DNA of 64,000 nucleotides, taken from the NCBI RefSeq assembly GCF_055900595.2, contig NZ_CM148325.1. One strand, given 5' to 3'. Positions 1 through 8,332 of this stretch are shown piece after piece; position 1 is the first letter of the stretch; the number at the start of each line of letters is the position of its first letter. The translations under genes and the position numbers were made by a program. Below the pieces are notes generated by a model. The model saw only the letters and a program-made list of their open reading frames with translations, was not told the DNA's origin and searched no databases.

Positions 1-675
1 AGCGATATCCTCATGGATATCGAAATTGACCACGCAGACCAGACCGAAGAGAGCGATATATCCTTCCTGACCCGCATGGCTGAAATGCTGGGTGCGATTG
101 CCACCGTAAAAAACGGCAGCCTGTTATTCATTCTGCCGGGTGGCGGAACCGGGCCGGACGGAAGAGCCCTGCCTTCGTTCGCCATTACCCGCAGCAGCGG
201 CGACAGTCACCGCTTTCGCATTGCTGACCGTGATGCGTATACGGGGGTCCGGGCGCACTGGCTCGATCTGAAGTTCGGGCAAAAGAAAAAAGTGAACGTG
301 AAGCGACGCAGGGAAGCCGGGAAACAGAAACAGGAGAAGAGCAGCAGCCGGGAAGGTGATTACATGGAGGGCGCGGAAGGGAACGTCTACGTTCTGCGCA
401 GGACTTACCAGAATGAAGAAACCGCACGACGTGCAGCAGCTGCAAAGTGGCAGGAACTACAGCGGGGCGCGGCATCATTCTCCATCACGCTGGCGCGCGG
501 TCGTGCCGACCTGTACCCTGAAATGCACGGCAGGGTAACAGGTTTTAAAAGCGAGGTGGACAATCAGGACTGGATTATTGCCAGGGTGGAGCACAGCATA
601 GATGAAAGCGGCTTCACCACACAACTGGAGCTGGAAGCGAAAATCCCCGAATGGATAGCAGATTCAGGCGGATAA
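1..675 (+). CDS. P2-like phage late control protein D (gpD), C-terminal part; ORF is open at window start so 5' end lies upstream
   Basis: Translation recognised as gpD-like tail/late protein; frame open from position 1; followed 44 bp later by an ogr-like gene as in P2 gene order D-ogr-att. Confidence 0.75.
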   Translation, partial: SDILMDIEIDHADQTEESDISFLTRMAEMLGAIATVKNGSLLFILPGGGTGPDGRALPSFAITRSSGDSHRFRIADRDAYTGVRAHWLDLKFGQKKKVNVKRRREAGKQKQEKSSSREGDYMEGAEGNVYVLRRTYQNEETARRAAAAKWQELQRGAASFSITLARGRADLYPEMHGRVTGFKSEVDNQDWIIARVEHSIDESGFTTQLELEAKIPEWIADSGG

Positions 676-718
676 AATTAAAATGAGCCATCTCCACTCA
701 GCCAGATAAGGAGAAGCC

Positions 719-970
719 ATGTTCCGTTGTCCCCTGTGCGGTGCATCCGCACGTATCCGCACCAGTCGCAATGAAAATGATTCAGGCACAGTTCGCCTGA
801 AGTACTACCAGTGCAATAACCTCGAATGCGGGATCGGCTTTACCACACTGGAGGGTTTTAACAAATTCACATCAAAACGCGCCCCGTCGCCGCAGGGTAC
901 AGAGCGGATACCGTGGGAAGATTTTCCGGGATCTCACAGGGGGAATGCTCAGATGAATCTTGATATTTAA
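719..970 (+). CDS. ogr: Ogr/Delta-family zinc-finger late transcription activator (P2-like phage)
   Basis: 83 aa, Cys4 motif C-x2-C-x24-C-x4-C (CPLC...CNNLEC), AAGGAG RBS 7 nt upstream of ATG, position immediately after gpD. Confidence 0.8.
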   Translation: MFRCPLCGASARIRTSRNENDSGTVRLKYYQCNNLECGIGFTTLEGFNKFTSKRAPSPQGTERIPWEDFPGSHRGNAQMNLDI

Positions 971-980
971 GAACAATAAT

Positions 981-1114
981 CAGGTTGAGAGGACATCATA
1001 AGGCAAGTAGATTAACGGCAGATACTTTCCCGCAACCACGGGCAAGTATTTAATTATCCATGATGAAATATGACCTAAATTGTTTTTTGCCCGCCGGAAA
1101 GCGGGCATTTTTTT
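981..1114 (+). repeat. Partial copy (U0) of a repeated unit, ending in terminator hairpin T0; candidate phage attR / 3' end of an sRNA-like gene
   Basis: Shares ggttgag, agtagattaac, attatccatgat and the terminator with the units at 1626-1783 and 1828-1987. Confidence 0.5.
1088..1114 (+). terminator. Intrinsic terminator-like hairpin T0 (tgcccgc-cggaaa-gcgggca + T7)
   Basis: 7-bp GC stem, 6-nt loop, 7 consecutive T; identical to T1. Confidence 0.7.
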
Positions 1115-1328
1115 ATTCTTTTGTGGTTATGGGGTCATCAGGAACCACGTGCAGATTATATTTTTGTTTTTTTGGCGTTCCTCCGGCAGCAACGAGTTCA
1201 TCAATAAGACACTGACACGCCTGAACATCCCGGGCATGTCTTAGTTTCACCTTTATTGATTTAACCTTATCCTCACCGGAGGAGAAATGCAGTTCAATCT
1301 CAATATCGTTTCTTCGGAACAATCTCAT
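1113..1328 (-). CDS. Hypothetical small protein (71 aa), orphan ORF between repeat copies
   Basis: ORF with G-rich RBS-like tract (caggggggcgt) directly upstream of ATG; no family recognised; stop codon abuts T0. Confidence 0.35.
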   Translation of the reverse strand: MRLFRRNDIEIELHFSSGEDKVKSIKVKLRHARDVQACQCLIDELVAAGGTPKKQKYNLHVVPDDPITTKE

Positions 1329-1554
1329 ACGCCCCCCTGAACATATCAGAAATGCTAGTATCGAAAAATGAGAAAACAGTTAGACAGGAGAAACATATTA
1401 ACACAAATCATTTATACCTATAGATGAAATTATAATTTCATTCATGAATATGATAGATAACTATATTGTGAACAAAATGAAAAATGGCTAAATTAAAAAT
1501 GGGCATGGAGGAATGCCTCGTAATCAGTAATACATGATCCATACTTCCTTGTTT

Positions 1555-1581
1555 TGCCCGCCGGAAAGCGGGCATTTTTTT
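1555..1581 (+). terminator. Intrinsic terminator-like hairpin T1 (identical to T0)
   Basis: Same stem-loop and T7 run as T0; preceded by conserved catgat motif. Confidence 0.7.
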
Positions 1582-1625
1582 GGCGGTTACCATCGCCTCA
1601 CCTTCCTGGTTCACACAAAGCAACC

Positions 1626-1783
1626 CTGATTTTCCATGAAAACTTCAGGGTTGAGCCAAAAGCACAAAGACAGTAGATTAACCAAGGGTACCCGCCACCT
1701 GCCAACAGGAACGGTATCCAGTACGTATTAATGACTGACAATTCACATTGCTGTTTTGCCCGCCAGAAGGTGGGCATTTTTTT
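1626..1783 (+). repeat. Repeat unit A (about 158 bp) ending in terminator T2; candidate sRNA-like gene copy
   Basis: About 85 percent identical to unit B over the first 75 nt; ends in hairpin gcccgcc-agaa-ggtgggc (one G.U pair) + T7 at 1757-1783. Confidence 0.55.
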
Positions 1784-1827
1784 GGCAGTTATCATGGACG
1801 CACCTTCATGACACATATTAAGCAGAC

Positions 1828-1987
1828 CTGATTTTTCCATGAAAAATTCATGGTTGAGACAAAAGCACAAAAACAGTAGATTAACCACGGGTGCCTGCCA
1901 CCTGACAACAGGAAGGGGTGTCCATTATCCATGATATACAAACGAAAAGTCTTGTCTTTTGCCCGCCGTTGCGCGGGCTTTTTTTTT
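1828..1987 (+). repeat. Repeat unit B (about 160 bp) ending in terminator T3; candidate sRNA-like gene copy
   Basis: Homologous to unit A and to U0; ends in hairpin gcccgc-cgttgc-gcgggc + T9 at 1961-1987. Confidence 0.55.
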
Positions 1988-2016
1988 GCCACCCTCACCA
2001 GTGAGGGTACCATCAT

Positions 2017-2238
2017 TCAGAGGCGCGTAAGCCACCCGGCGTTAACATCCTGCCCGTCAACCCTGACCGCAGAGTCTGAACGGCAGGCACCGGAAGCAGT
2101 ACCAAAAACACCTCTGACAAGTTCCGCCACCTTCCCGATATCATCAGGCGCCACATTCCTCACCTCGACAGCGATCCGTGGCGTACCATCATCGTTAACA
2201 AGCGTGGCTTTAAGGCTGGTACGACGGGCAAATAACAT
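2017..2238 (-). CDS. Hypothetical protein (73 aa, MLFARRTSLKATLVNDDGTPRIAVEV...)
   Basis: ORF with GGAGG-type Shine-Dalgarno (gggaggggg) 8 nt upstream of ATG, balanced amino-acid composition; family not recognised. Confidence 0.4.
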   Translation of the reverse strand: MLFARRTSLKATLVNDDGTPRIAVEVRNVAPDDIGKVAELVRGVFGTASGACRSDSAVRVDGQDVNAGWLTRL

Positions 2239-2294
2239 CAACACCCCCTCCCTTCGGTTCGTTGCACTGGCAGCACGATACCACCAGGAAAAAG

Positions 2295-2329
2295 AAAAGC
2301 CCACAACGTCAGGATTGCGGGCTTTTTTT
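2295..2329 (+). terminator. Hairpin T4 with A-tract upstream and T7 downstream (bidirectional terminator-like)
   Basis: aaaagccc...gggcttttttt about 70 bp upstream of copA -35. Confidence 0.5.
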
Positions 2330-2394
2330 CTTCAAAAATGGACACTACGTGGACACTGATTAAATAATCCTTTCTTAATCAGACTGTTAAAATG

Positions 2395-2465: not shown

Positions 2466-4970
2466 ATGTCACAAACTATCGACCTGACCCTGGACGGCCT
2501 GTCCTGCGGTCACTGCGTTAAACGCGTGAAAGAAAGTCTCGAACAGCGCCCGGATGTTGAGCAGGCGGATGTGTCTATCACTGAAGCGCACGTTACCGGT
2601 ACTGCCAGTGCAGAACAGCTGATCGAAACCATCAAACAAGCGGGTTATGACGCATCTGTAAGCCACCCAAAGGCTAAACCGCTGGCGGAGTCATCAATCC
2701 CGTCGGAAGCACTGACAGCGGTTTCTGAGGCGCTTCCGGCAGCAAACGCCGATGACGATGACAGTCAGCAGTTGCTGCTGAGCGGCATGAGCTGCGCCAG
2801 CTGTGTTACCCGCGTACAAAATGCGCTGCAAAGCGTACCGGGCGTCACTCAGGCACGGGTAAACCTGGCGGAGCGTACTGCGCTGGTGATGGGCAGTGCC
2901 TCCCCACAAGATTTAGTGCAGGCAGTGGAAAAAGCGGGCTACGGCGCGGAAGCGATTGAAGATGACGCTAAACGCCGCGAGCGCCAGCAGGAAACCGCCG
3001 TCGCTACCATGAAGCGCTTCCGCTGGCAGGCAATTGTCGCTCTGGCGGTAGGTATCCCGGTGATGGTCTGGGGGATGATCGGCGATAACATGATGGTCAC
3101 CGCCGACAACCGCAGTCTGTGGTTAGTTATCGGCCTGATAACGCTGGCGGTAATGGTTTTCGCCGGCGGGCATTTTTACCGTAGCGCATGGAAAAGCCTG
3201 CTGAACGGTGCGGCGACAATGGATACGCTGGTGGCGCTGGGTACTGGCGTGGCGTGGCTCTATTCAATGAGCGTCAACCTGTGGCCGCAGTGGTTCCCGA
3301 TGGAAGCGCGACATCTTTATTACGAAGCCAGTGCGATGATTATCGGTCTGATTAATCTCGGTCATATGCTGGAAGCGCGCGCACGTCAGCGTTCTTCAAA
3401 GGCGCTGGAGAAATTACTCGATTTAACCCCGCCGACGGCGCGCCTGGTCACTGACGAAGGTGAAAAAAGCGTGCCGCTGGCAGATGTTCAGCCTGGTATG
3501 TTACTACGCCTGACGACCGGCGATCGCGTACCGGTAGATGGTGAAATTACCCAGGGCGAAGCGTGGCTGGATGAAGCAATGCTGACGGGCGAACCTATTC
3601 CGCAGCAAAAAGGCGAAGGCGATAGCGTTCATGCAGGTACCGTGGTGCAGGACGGTAGCGTGCTGTTTCGTGCCAGTGCGGTTGGCAGCCATACTACGCT
3701 GTCACGGATCATTCGTATGGTGCGCCAGGCCCAGAGCAGTAAACCGGAAATCGGCCAGTTGGCGGATAAAATCTCTGCCGTATTTGTGCCGGTAGTGGTG
3801 GTGATTGCGCTGGTCAGTGCGGCAATCTGGTACTTCTTTGGTCCGGCACCGCAAATTGTTTATACCCTGGTGATTGCCACTACGGTACTGATTATCGCCT
3901 GCCCGTGTGCGCTGGGGCTGGCAACGCCAATGTCGATTATTTCCGGCGTCGGGCGTGCGGCTGAATTTGGCGTGCTGGTGCGGGACGCCGACGCGCTGCA
4001 GCGCGCCAGTACGCTCGACACCGTAGTGTTCGATAAAACCGGGACGCTGACCGAAGGGAAGCCGCAGGTTGTCGCAGTAAAAACATTTGCTGATGTTGAT
4101 GAAGCGCAAGCATTGCGTCTGGCGGCGGCACTGGAACAAGGTTCCAGCCATCCGCTGGCACGGGCGATCCTCGATAAAGCAGGCGATATGCAGCTGCCGC
4201 AGGTCAACAGCTTCCGTACATTGCGTGGGCTGGGCGTGAGCGGTGAAGCAGAAGGTCATGCGTTATTGCTGGGTAATCAGGCGTTGTTAAATGACCAGCA
4301 AGTCGATACTAAAGCGATTGAAGCAGATATTTCAGCCCAGGCATCGCAAGGGGCAACGCCTGTGCTGCTGGCGGTTGACGGGAAAGCGGTGGCCTTGCTG
4401 GCGGTGCGCGATCCGTTGCGTAACGATAGTGTGGCGGCACTGCAACGTCTGCATAAAGCGGGATATCGTCTGGTGATGCTAACCGGGGATAACCCGACCA
4501 CCGCCAATGCGATCGCCAAAGAAGCAGGGATTGATGAGGTGATAGCCGGCGTGCTGCCAGACGGTAAAGCCGAAGCGATCAAACGTCTGCAAAGTGAAGG
4601 ACGTCAGGTGGCAATGGTGGGCGACGGCATTAACGACGCGCCAGCGCTGGCTCAGGCGGATGTCGGTATTGCTATGGGTGGCGGCAGCGATGTTGCCATT
4701 GAAACCGCGGCGATTACCCTGATGCGCCATAGCCTGATGGGTGTTGCGGATGCGCTCGCAATTTCCCGCGCAACGCTGCGCAACATGAAGCAGAACCTGC
4801 TCGGTGCGTTTATCTACAACAGCATTGGTATTCCGGTCGCCGCCGGTATTTTGTGGCCGTTCACGGGAACACTGCTTAACCCGGTGGTTGCCGGAGCGGC
4901 AATGGCGCTCTCGTCGATTACCGTAGTGAGTAACGCCAACCGGTTGCTGCGGTTTAAACCGAAGGAATAA
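2466..4970 (+). CDS. copA: Cu(I)-translocating P-type ATPase
   Basis: 834 aa; two N-terminal GxxCxxC metal-binding domains, CPC motif, DKTGT phosphorylation site. Confidence 0.97.
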
Positions 4971-5165
4971 GTATGTCATTGCGGATGCGCTGCTTTAGGG
5001 TGGCGCATCTGGCATCGACGCATGCCTGCCGGATGCGGCGATGTTTTGGCCTTACGCGACCTTTTTGCACGTTTTCCCCGGCGTGCCAAATATTTAATCC
5101 GTCCCAACTCCATTTGCGCCATCCCTCACCGCGCGCTAGCATGATATTTCACAAAGGGAGGTCGT

Positions 5166-5960
5166 ATGGATCTGTTGTACCGGGTAAAAACGCTTTGGGC
5201 CGCGCTGTGCGGTAATCATTACACCTGGCCTGCTATCGATATCTCTCTTCCCGACCATCGCCATTTTCATCTAATCGGCAGTATTCATATGGGTAGCCAC
5301 GATATGGCTCCCCTGCCCACCCGTTTGCTCAAAAAGCTCAAAAACGCCGATGCGCTGATCGTCGAGGCGGATGTTTCTACCAGCGATACGCCTTTTGCCA
5401 ATTTGCCTGCCTGCGAGGCGCTGGAAGAGCGCATTAGCGAGGAGCAACTCCAAAACCTGCAGCACATTAGCCAGGAGATGGGCATTTCTCCGTCGCTCTT
5501 TTCTACCCAACCGCTGTGGCAAATCGCGATGGTTCTTCAGGCAACGCAAGCGCAAAAACTGGGGCTGCGGGCAGAATATGGTATCGATTACCAGCTATTG
5601 CAGGTGGCGAAGCAACAACATAAACCCGTGATTGAACTGGAAGGGGCAGAAAACCAGATTGCCATGTTGCTCCAGCTCCCTGACAAAGGACTGGCGCTGC
5701 TGGACGATACGCTGACCCACTGGCACACCAACGCTCGTTTGCTGCAACAAATGATGAGTTGGTGGCTGAATGCACCACCGCAAAATAATGAAATAACGCT
5801 GCCCAATACGTTCAGTCAGTCGCTGTACGATGTGTTGATGCATCAGCGAAATCTCGCCTGGCGGGACAAATTACGCGCTATGCCGCCGGGGCGCTATGTG
5901 GTCGCGGTCGGTGCACTACACCTGTATGGAGAAGGGAATTTGCCACAAATGTTGCGCTAA
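5166..5960 (+). CDS. ybaP: TraB-family protein YbaP
   Basis: 264 aa, recognised as YbaP; GGAGG RBS. Confidence 0.9.
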   Translation: MDLLYRVKTLWAALCGNHYTWPAIDISLPDHRHFHLIGSIHMGSHDMAPLPTRLLKKLKNADALIVEADVSTSDTPFANLPACEALEERISEEQLQNLQHISQEMGISPSLFSTQPLWQIAMVLQATQAQKLGLRAEYGIDYQLLQVAKQQHKPVIELEGAENQIAMLLQLPDKGLALLDDTLTHWHTNARLLQQMMSWWLNAPPQNNEITLPNTFSQSLYDVLMHQRNLAWRDKLRAMPPGRYVVAVGALHLYGEGNLPQMLR

Positions 5961-6042
5961 AAAAATGGCCAATATCGCTATTGGCCCGTCAAAGAGGAAT
6001 TTCATTTTTTTATTATTATGCCGTCACTTTAAGCGACGGTGT
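5959..6042 (-). ncRNA. chiX: ChiX (SroB/MicM) Hfq-dependent small RNA
   Basis: Reverse complement matches remembered ChiX sequence ACACCGTCGCTTAAAGTGACGGC...GGCCAATAGCGATATTGGCCATTTTTTT; 3' end overlaps ybaP stop codon. Confidence 0.9.
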
Positions 6043-6163: not shown

Positions 6164-6643
6164 ATGACACCCGCAGTTAAATTACTCGAAAAAAACAAGA
6201 TTTCGTTTCAAATCCATACCTACGAGCACGATCCAGCTGAAACCAATTTTGGCGATGAAGTCGTCAAAAAATTAGGTTTGAATCCGGATCAGGTCTACAA
6301 AACGCTGCTGGTCGCAGTGAACGGTGATATGAAACATCTGGCAGTGGCCGTTACGCCGGTCGCCGGTCAACTGGATCTTAAAAAAGTAGCAAAGGCGTTG
6401 GGTGCCAAGAAAGTTGAGATGGCCGATCCGATGGTCGCGCAGCGTTCGACGGGATATCTGGTTGGGGGGATTAGCCCACTGGGGCAGAAAAAACGCCTGC
6501 CGACGATTATCGACGCCCCCGCGCAAGAGTTTGCCACTATTTTTGTTTCTGGCGGCAAGCGCGGGCTGGACATCGAACTGGCGGCAAGCGACCTGGCGAA
6601 GATCCTCGATGCCAAATTTGCTGATATCGCTCGTCGCGATTAA
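6164..6643 (+). CDS. ybaK: Cys-tRNA(Pro)/Cys-tRNA(Cys) deacylase
   Basis: 159 aa, recognised. Confidence 0.93.
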
Positions 6644-6679: not shown

Positions 6680-8332
6680 TTACTGCCAGCTCACCTCACC
6701 TTTCGGTTCATAGACACTCACATCCAGCGGCGAGTTTTTCTGGATATACGCTTTCAGCACTTCAGCATCAATAAAGCCGGTATTCACATAGCCCGGTTTG
6801 TTATCCAGACGCGGATAGCCATCACCGCCAGTGGCATTGAAGTTTAATGTCGCCATACGGTAAGTTTTCGCCGGATCGACCGGTTCGCCTTTGATTTTCA
6901 GGTCGTTCAGTTTGCCGTCTTTCGCCACAAAGCTAACGTTGGCAAATTGCGGATAGGCACCAGAATCAGGCTTCATTTGTGCGACGGCGGTCAGGTAATC
7001 AATCACCTCTTTACCGGTCATGTCGGCATACACCACCACATTGCCGAATGGCTGCACTTTCAGCACATTTTTATAGCTGATATCACCTGTTTCGATAGAA
7101 TCACGAATTCCGCCTCCGCTCATCACCGCAAAGTCGGCACCAGTGCGATCCATTTGTGCTGCCAGAATCAACCGCCCCATATTGGTCTGTACAAAACGCA
7201 CTTTGCTGCGGTCGCCTTCCAGACGACCATTGGTTTCGCCTATTTTCACTTCCAGCTGCGCTTTGCCTTTGTTCTGGAACGGTGATAACAGCGAAATCAT
7301 TTGCTGGTTTTCGGCGATTTCAGGGGTGTAAAGCACACGCTCGCTTTTCCCGTCTTCCCAGGTCACTTTCTTCTTCAGGTTTACCGGAATCAACTGGTAG
7401 TTGACCATTTTCATTTCGCCGTTGCGAAACTCAAAGTCGGCCCGACCAACGTACTTGCCCCACTCATGCGCTTGTACAATCCAGATGCCATTTTGTTGAT
7501 CCGGTTTGCATGGCGTACCAGGAACGTAATCGACCTGTTTTTTATTTTCTGCCGCCATACAGACTGGATCTTGCGAGTGACCTCCGACGATCATCGCCAG
7601 CGATCCGGCAGGCAGCGCGCGTGCCATCTCCACATCGCCCGCTGCATTAGAGCCGTGCTCACCATTGTCGTAATGCCCCATATGGGTTGCCGCGATAATA
7701 ATGTCTGGCTTTTCTGTCTGTTGCAGCTCCTGAATCACCAGCTTCGCTTTATCAGCGGGCTTACGAAATTCGATATCAGTGAAGTATTCCGGGTTACCAA
7801 TTTTGGCTGTGTCATCGGTTGTCAGCCCAATAACGGCAATTTTCAGATCCTGACGCTTAAACAGCGCCCATGGTTTAAACAGGCGCTCACCAGTGCTTTT
7901 TTGGTAGATATTGGCGGAAAGCAACGGGAACTTAGCCCACTTTTCCTGCTGGCGTAATACGGTGAGCGGGTTATCAAATTCATGATTACCGATCGCCATT
8001 GCATCATAGCCCACCAGATTCATACCTCGAAAATCAGGTTCGGCATCCTGTAAGTCGGACTCGGGCACGCCAGTATTAATGTCGCCACCGGAAAGTAGCA
8101 GCACGCTACCACCTTCAGCCGCAACCTCTTTGCGAATACCGTCCACCAGCGTTTTTTGCGCCGCCAGACCATATTCGCCATATTCATTACGCCAGAAATG
8201 ACCATGATGATCATTGGTATGCAGAACTGTAATTTTGTAGGTTTTATCCTGCTCATAAGCCAGAGCAGTTTCACTCGCCAGTGTAAATGTGGTTAACAGT
8301 GCTAACGCCACGCCCCGCTGCAATAATTTCAT
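6680..8332 (-). CDS. ushA: UDP-sugar hydrolase / 5'-nucleotidase (periplasmic)
   Basis: 550 aa with signal peptide, metallophosphatase motifs. Confidence 0.95.
   Translation of the reverse strand: MKLLQRGVALALLTTFTLASETALAYEQDKTYKITVLHTNDHHGHFWRNEYGEYGLAAQKTLVDGIRKEVAAEGGSVLLLSGGDINTGVPESDLQDAEPDFRGMNLVGYDAMAIGNHEFDNPLTVLRQQEKWAKFPLLSANIYQKSTGERLFKPWALFKRQDLKIAVIGLTTDDTAKIGNPEYFTDIEFRKPADKAKLVIQELQQTEKPDIIIAATHMGHYDNGEHGSNAAGDVEMARALPAGSLAMIVGGHSQDPVCMAAENKKQVDYVPGTPCKPDQQNGIWIVQAHEWGKYVGRADFEFRNGEMKMVNYQLIPVNLKKKVTWEDGKSERVLYTPEIAENQQMISLLSPFQNKGKAQLEVKIGETNGRLEGDRSKVRFVQTNMGRLILAAQMDRTGADFAVMSGGGIRDSIETGDISYKNVLKVQPFGNVVVYADMTGKEVIDYLTAVAQMKPDSGAYPQFANVSFVAKDGKLNDLKIKGEPVDPAKTYRMATLNFNATGGDGYPRLDNKPGYVNTGFIDAEVLKAYIQKNSPLDVSVYEPKGEVSWQ

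Follow-up and report, generated by a model that had tools for sequence, protein, structure and literature searches.

The question raised by this locus is what became of ybaQ, and whether a compact copA-ybaP spacer reflects loss of the gene or its gain in other E. coli. In the window, by which we mean the whole 64-kb stretch of DNA analyzed, copA (2466..4970, + strand; ORF of 834 aa) encodes a copper-exporting P-type ATPase, identified by the NCBIfam equivalog model NF007952 CopA with 1748.9 bits against a cut-off of 1316. The next gene, ybaP (5166..5960, +; ORF of 264 aa), encodes a protein of the TraB/GumN family (Pfam PF01963 TraB_PrgY_gumN, E 1.7e-43) and is followed by ybaK (6164..6643, +) and then ushA (6680..8332, -). 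The copA stop codon and the start of ybaP form the left and right boundaries of the spacer (4971..5165), and the length of 195 bp given in the original prediction is confirmed exactly by the gene coordinates 4970 and 5166. The prediction also placed ybaQ between these two genes in K-12 and considered the gene to be missing here, and both points hold. The order in K-12 is copA(+), ybaQ(-), ybaP(+), with an intact ybaQ of 342 bp (113 aa) on the opposite strand, and the K-12 spacer is 794 bp long and not 195 bp. No ybaQ ORF is found in the spacer of the window, and a tblastn search with K-12 YbaQ detected no further copy elsewhere in the 64 kb, the best match being a 23-residue fragment at 5116..5060(-) with an E value of 0.023. 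The same type of search with HigB-1 found nothing at the copA-ybaP locus, and nothing better than E 0.14 in the whole window. We consider it very likely that ybaQ is absent due to deletion and not that it was inserted in K-12, and that the higB-1/ybaQ locus was shortened by two deletions, one after the other, of which the spacer is what is left.

The copA-ybaP junction is the position of a published chromosomal toxin-antitoxin locus of type II (HigB/HigA). In R9, the spacer measures 869 bp and contains ybaQ and, immediately upstream of it and in the same orientation, a toxin gene of the RelE/ParE family. The R9 toxin matches the Pfam family HigB-like_toxin (PF05015, E 2.7e-32), and YbaQ contains an HTH_3 domain (Pfam, E 3e-11) at residues 16-70. 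The toxin-antitoxin arrangement is also reported for S88, in which higB-1 is de-repressed when ybaQ is knocked down, and the essentiality of ybaQ is restricted to B2 and F strains with higB-1 upstream of it (Rousset et al., bioRxiv 10.1101/2020.05.25.114553). According to the same study, the toxin is absent from K-12 and most phylogroups, and both genes are lost in phylogroup D (Rousset et al., bioRxiv 10.1101/2020.05.25.114553). This loss pattern agrees with the polymorphism that we count below. K-12 YbaQ has been classified as a solitary antitoxin by RASTA-Bacteria (PMC2374986). The orphan ybaQ locus of K-12 resembles the window in its homologous flanks, in lacking the toxin and in having REPs between copA and the 3' end of ybaQ. 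Unlike the published higB-1/ybaQ locus, the window has neither gene and holds a remnant of the antitoxin gene only. We found no toxin with a HigB-like/RelE fold, the HTH_3 region of the HTH (Xre/HigA) antitoxin is wholly deleted, and the upstream region, where a toxin-then-antitoxin operon would have its antitoxin-bound promoter, is deleted as well. As the window strain is without both partners, neither essentiality nor regulation that depends on ybaQ is relevant to it.

The remnant of ybaQ is found at 5052..5103 (-) and consists of 52 nt, i.e., the stop codon and approximately the last 21 codons. It is located between conserved flanks, at the position orthologous to K-12 ybaQ and in the orientation of that gene, and it aligns to nucleotides 1-65 of the gene's 3' end. 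Past the copA stop, window 4971-5037 matches K-12 at 63/67 positions. From there, the pairwise alignment of K-12 spacer 316-380 to the window gives three blocks. In the first, 5038-5061, all bases agree with K-12 (24/24), and it contains the stop codon of ybaQ, which on the + strand reads TTA (5052-5054), while the last ybaQ codons continue in 5062-5092 (27/31) and 5093-5103 (10/11), and the blocks are separated by a 1-nt and a 12-nt deletion. The 12-nt deletion is in-frame and removes ETVA, and there are additionally five substitutions. Thus, the remnant differs from K-12 and R9, which are identical to each other in this part, at 5/42 aligned bases and by two indels. Relaxed selection after the deletion would produce such substitutions and indels. 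Translated on the minus strand, the remnant reads ELGRIKYLARRGKRAK compared to the YbaQ C-terminus ELGRIETVAEYLARREERAKKVA and its stop, with ELGRI..YLARR..RAK in common. At the protein level this match is weak when taken alone (52 nt, E 0.023), and it is the position and the nucleotide identity that argue for a ybaQ origin.

The remnant ends at a deletion junction (5101..5107) where 352 bp are missing compared to K-12. The missing part (K-12 spacer 381-732) consists of 277 bp from the 5' part of the ybaQ coding region and the 75 bp that precede the gene. The break sits in a microhomology or short direct repeat, GTC(C/T)CCAA (GTCnCCAA), and the breakpoint flanks are CCGTCCCAATTC inside ybaQ and AAGTCTCCAACTCC upstream. 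Judged from the junction, the 352-bp deletion may have occurred in an orphan-ybaQ allele or in a full allele with toxin and ybaQ, as it fits both. SNPs in the flanks are mixed with regard to the source allele: in CCCTCACC, the window agrees with K-12 in having 'A', and 'C' is found in a metagenome contig that shares the junction.

The distribution of the alleles was analyzed in 5,426 complete E. coli genomes, 5,422 of which match a 1.4-kb query across the junction. Among the 5,426 genomes, 4,834 retain the part of ybaQ that is deleted in the window, 592 are without the 5' part of ybaQ, and 1,266 have the toxin gene. On the assumption that all genomes with the toxin also have ybaQ, approximately 23% carry the full module, 66% carry ybaQ alone, and 11% are without ybaQ. 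The window-type junction, counted with a 77-nt probe that is unable to seed on ybaQ-bearing alleles, is found in 44 genomes, including SMS-3-5 and CE10, the latter presumably a phylogroup F strain. Since the identical junction is present in 44 complete genomes, the loss of ybaQ is a lineage trait and not a single-strain event. The original prediction suggested a strain-specific indel at this place; the indel is real, but the loss of ybaQ is not specific to the strain. The deletion junction can serve as a simple lineage marker (44/5,426 complete genomes). SMS-3-5 belongs to phylogroup F and ST354 (PMC11537424). Phylogroup F is therefore heterogeneous at this locus, because Rousset et al. give F strains higB-1, yet SMS-3-5 shows the window-type loss.

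Two other types of ybaQ-less alleles were found, and their junctions differ from that of the window. In the VCSW5 type (184-188 genomes), approximately 21 nt of the ybaQ 3' end are left, without REPs, and are joined to K-12-like sequence from upstream of ybaQ. In 347 genomes, a GC-rich intergenic repeat of ~270 bp takes the place of the whole copA-ybaP spacer. E. coli genomes have this repeat at a median of three places, e.g., between aqpZ and lysO, and it matched no Rfam family. This replacement may be the phylogroup D loss described by Rousset et al. Examples of it are found at L005:2072-2440 (strain 366_BP0076) and L009:2501-2771. Because the ybaQ-less genomes use different junctions, the gene has been lost at least three independent times. 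A separate and independent rearrangement was observed in one genome, SC418, whose copA-ybaP spacer carries an inserted transposase of the IS110 family (L006:2730-3755).

The second deletion concerns the REP region between copA and the ybaQ remnant. The original prediction described a REP-like palindrome in the spacer, and the quoted string, gcctgccggatgcggcg, is located at 5024..5040. The string is REP-derived, but it is not a complete palindrome. A full REP is an imperfect palindrome of ~35 nt that requires GCCGGATGCGGCG followed by CGCCTTATCCGGCCTAC, and the window has the 5' arm only, as a solo fragment of 14 nt, TGCCGGATGCGGCG (5027..5040, +). The 3' arm is present in K-12, Z0117EC0005 and SMS-3-5, and absent from the window. 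The GCCGGATGCGGCG motif has three matches in the window at no more than one mismatch, compared to 0.16 expected by chance. We take the repeats to be REP/BIME elements on the basis of the REP consensus, and the fragment in the window is identical to the REP 5' arm at the homologous place in K-12, SMS-3-5 and Z0117EC0005. Unlike REP/BIME elements, however, a fragment without the 3' arm forms no REP stem-loop, and it would be a recombination product of two REPs and not a functional REP. There are five alternating REPs between copA and ybaQ in K-12, and none in R9. While K-12 keeps its intact ybaQ and five REPs in 794 bp, the 195 bp of the window spacer contain 52 nt of ybaQ and a REP fragment of 14 nt.

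How the spacer became this short is indicated by the nearest relative, Z0117EC0005, in which copA is 99.96% and ybaP 100% identical to the window. Its sequence is identical to the window on both sides of the fragment, yet it has 122 extra bases between two copies of TGCCGGATGCGGC. Based on this comparison, the fragment at 5027-5040 appears to have arisen when ~122 bp were deleted between 13-nt direct repeats and two REP 5' arms were thereby fused. All of the same-junction genomes (44/44) align to the window spacer in two pieces with spans of 287-388 bp, which correspond to spacers of 227-328 bp. We also observed a 7-nt microsatellite (CGGATGC) beside the REPs, the copy number of which varies among the same-junction relatives and gives spacers of 303, 310, 317 and 324 bp.

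The 195-bp form was detected in 0 of the 44 same-junction genomes and in none of the 5,426 complete genomes. Additionally, an exact 36-nt probe across the REP fusion had no matches in metagenome contigs, and in the one metagenome contig that shares the window's ybaQ junction, the spacer is 328 bp long and contains three REPs. REP clusters are repetitive, and the rarity of the compact form could also mean that ybaQ is truly absent while the shrinkage to 195 bp is an assembly artefact, caused by collapse of the REP cluster. However, the missing 122 bp are mostly unique and flanked by repeats of only 13 nt, which are rarely collapsed by assemblers, and real deletions between direct repeats are common. 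Furthermore, the length of the REP cluster varies naturally, as the spacers of ybaQ-bearing strains range from 592 to ~996 bp and those of the relatives from 227 to 328 bp. An assembly error is therefore a quite unlikely explanation, and less likely than a compact form that is apparently private to the window strain. It is only this further shrinkage to which the term strain-specific can be applied.

A different reading of the locus is that the compact spacer represents an ancestral empty site, and that ybaQ, with or without the toxin, was gained by K-12 and others via a mobile toxin-antitoxin cassette. Toxin-antitoxin modules are often mobile, and the presence of the gene does vary, with 592/5,426 genomes being without it. 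Still, an empty site is rejected because the spacer keeps 52 nt from inside ybaQ, i.e., 3' coding sequence including the stop codon, at the homologous position. The frame-destroying and in-frame indels of this remnant are typical of pseudogene decay, and the three ybaQ-less allele types have different breakpoints inside or around ybaQ, which points to independent deletions. We regard a gain of ybaQ at an empty site as extremely improbable.

With deletion as the preferred explanation, the history of the locus might be as follows. The complete locus would have consisted of a HigB-like toxin gene followed by the HTH antitoxin/repressor gene ybaQ downstream on the same strand, both convergent with copA. 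In most E. coli, including K-12, the toxin would have been lost and ybaQ kept as an orphan antitoxin, while REPs accumulated between copA and ybaQ. In the lineage of the window, the 352-bp deletion would then have taken the promoter-proximal 277 bp of ybaQ together with 75 bp upstream, and we infer that it occurred between the GTCnCCAA direct repeats, with replication slippage or illegitimate recombination as the most likely mechanism. The final 52 nt of the gene would have stayed and decayed afterwards. With no toxin left to neutralise, ybaQ would have been dispensable, and its loss presumably came without a fitness cost. The second and apparently private deletion, of ~122 bp between the two 13-nt TGCCGGATGCGGC repeats, would have followed, taking out a REP pair and leaving one fused fragment in a spacer of 195 bp.

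The locus clearly illustrates how a toxin-antitoxin module decays step by step: the full module becomes an orphan antitoxin and then a remnant, and several end states have been reached independently. The sole addition made by our results would be that some phylogroup F strains, namely SMS-3-5 and, if our assignment of it to this phylogroup is right, CE10, have lost both genes via a junction unlike the other two loss types. The presence-absence pattern of the toxin and ybaQ and the outline of the decay are already known (Rousset et al., bioRxiv 10.1101/2020.05.25.114553), and the window allele is another end state and an ordinary lineage difference. It is conceivable, though unlikely, that the copA-ybaP junction is a hot spot for recurrent loss of the orphan ybaQ, given at least three losses and the IS110 variant, and that the loss was perhaps selected rather than neutral. 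If this were true, a possible cause might be other regulatory targets of YbaQ, or an anti-addiction role against incoming elements that carry higB, and lineages without ybaQ would be regulated differently or be more or less susceptible to such elements.

What remains of the spacer is non-coding and consists of the copA 3' hairpin or hairpins, the REP fragment, the ybaQ remnant and an intact ybaP leader. Just past the copA stop, a stem-loop at 4982..5011 (+) has a 13-bp stem and a 4-nt loop, and it probably functions as a copA 3' hairpin or terminator. Its sequence is conserved in K-12, R9, SMS-3-5, VCSW5 and Z0117EC0005, and in strains with the full module it is placed between the convergent copA and ybaQ. 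A second, imperfect hairpin (~5012..5048, +) is made up of the REP fragment and its flank, followed by TTTT. This hairpin is terminator-like but not statistically distinctive: a terminator consensus scan gave one site, 5027-5040 followed by TTTT, compared to 0.7 expected by chance, and the stronger hairpin at 4982-5011 is without a U-run. The ybaP leader (5104..5165, +) is a conserved stretch of 62 nt outside the deletion, in which GGGAGG (5156-5161) is the ribosome-binding site. This stretch is identical to K-12 at 62/62 and to R9 at 60/61 positions, and it is kept in all allele types examined. The leader may have a promoter role, and a consensus scan for a sigma-70 promoter in the spacer gave no site.

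It is scarcely credible that the spacer conceals a functional replacement for ybaQ, e.g., a small RNA or a small protein: although ORFs are found at 4954..5142 (-; 62 aa) and 4973..5215 (+; 80 aa) and the RNA fold of 4965-5065 is somewhat better than that of shuffled sequences (MFE -40.1 kcal/mol, z = -2.18), neither ORF matches an NCBIfam family, the 62-aa ORF runs through the ybaQ remnant in a frame other than that of YbaQ, no RNA family was found in 4800-5300 by an Rfam scan at E<=1, the spacer has no promoter-like site, and all of its segments are homologous to K-12 or Z0117EC0005, so nothing new has been inserted.

Some further observations were made in the regions around the spacer. The copA allele of the window (2466..4970) is ~5% divergent from those of K-12, SMS-3-5 and R9. 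The mismatches are unevenly distributed, with the highest density at 3466-4465, and only 8/5,426 genomes match the query 4400-5800 (the copA 3' end and ybaP) at >=99%. The uneven divergence and the few close matches suggest that copA may be mosaic or recombinant. Upstream of copA, a P2-like prophage is integrated between glsA and copA, and window 1..2394 represents its right end. The prophage genes at the start of the window encode a late control D protein, followed by an Ogr/Delta-like gene at 719..970. The copA promoter/CueR-box sequence CTTGACCTTCCCCTTGCTGGAAGG begins at 2395 and directly adjoins the prophage end. CS5L has the same glsA-copA prophage layout, with a prophage of ~36 kb and the integrase beside glsA, while Z0117EC0005, the closest relative at copA/ybaP, is without this prophage. 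On the other side of the spacer, R9 has two extra genes between ybaK and ushA, encoding a DUF6896 protein and a hypothetical protein (L003:5942-7242), neither of which is found in the window or in K-12. Finally, the small RNA gene sroB (ChiX/MicM) is found at 5959..6042 (-) in the ybaP-ybaK spacer, where it overlaps the ybaP stop codon (Rfam RF00368, 82.1 bits).
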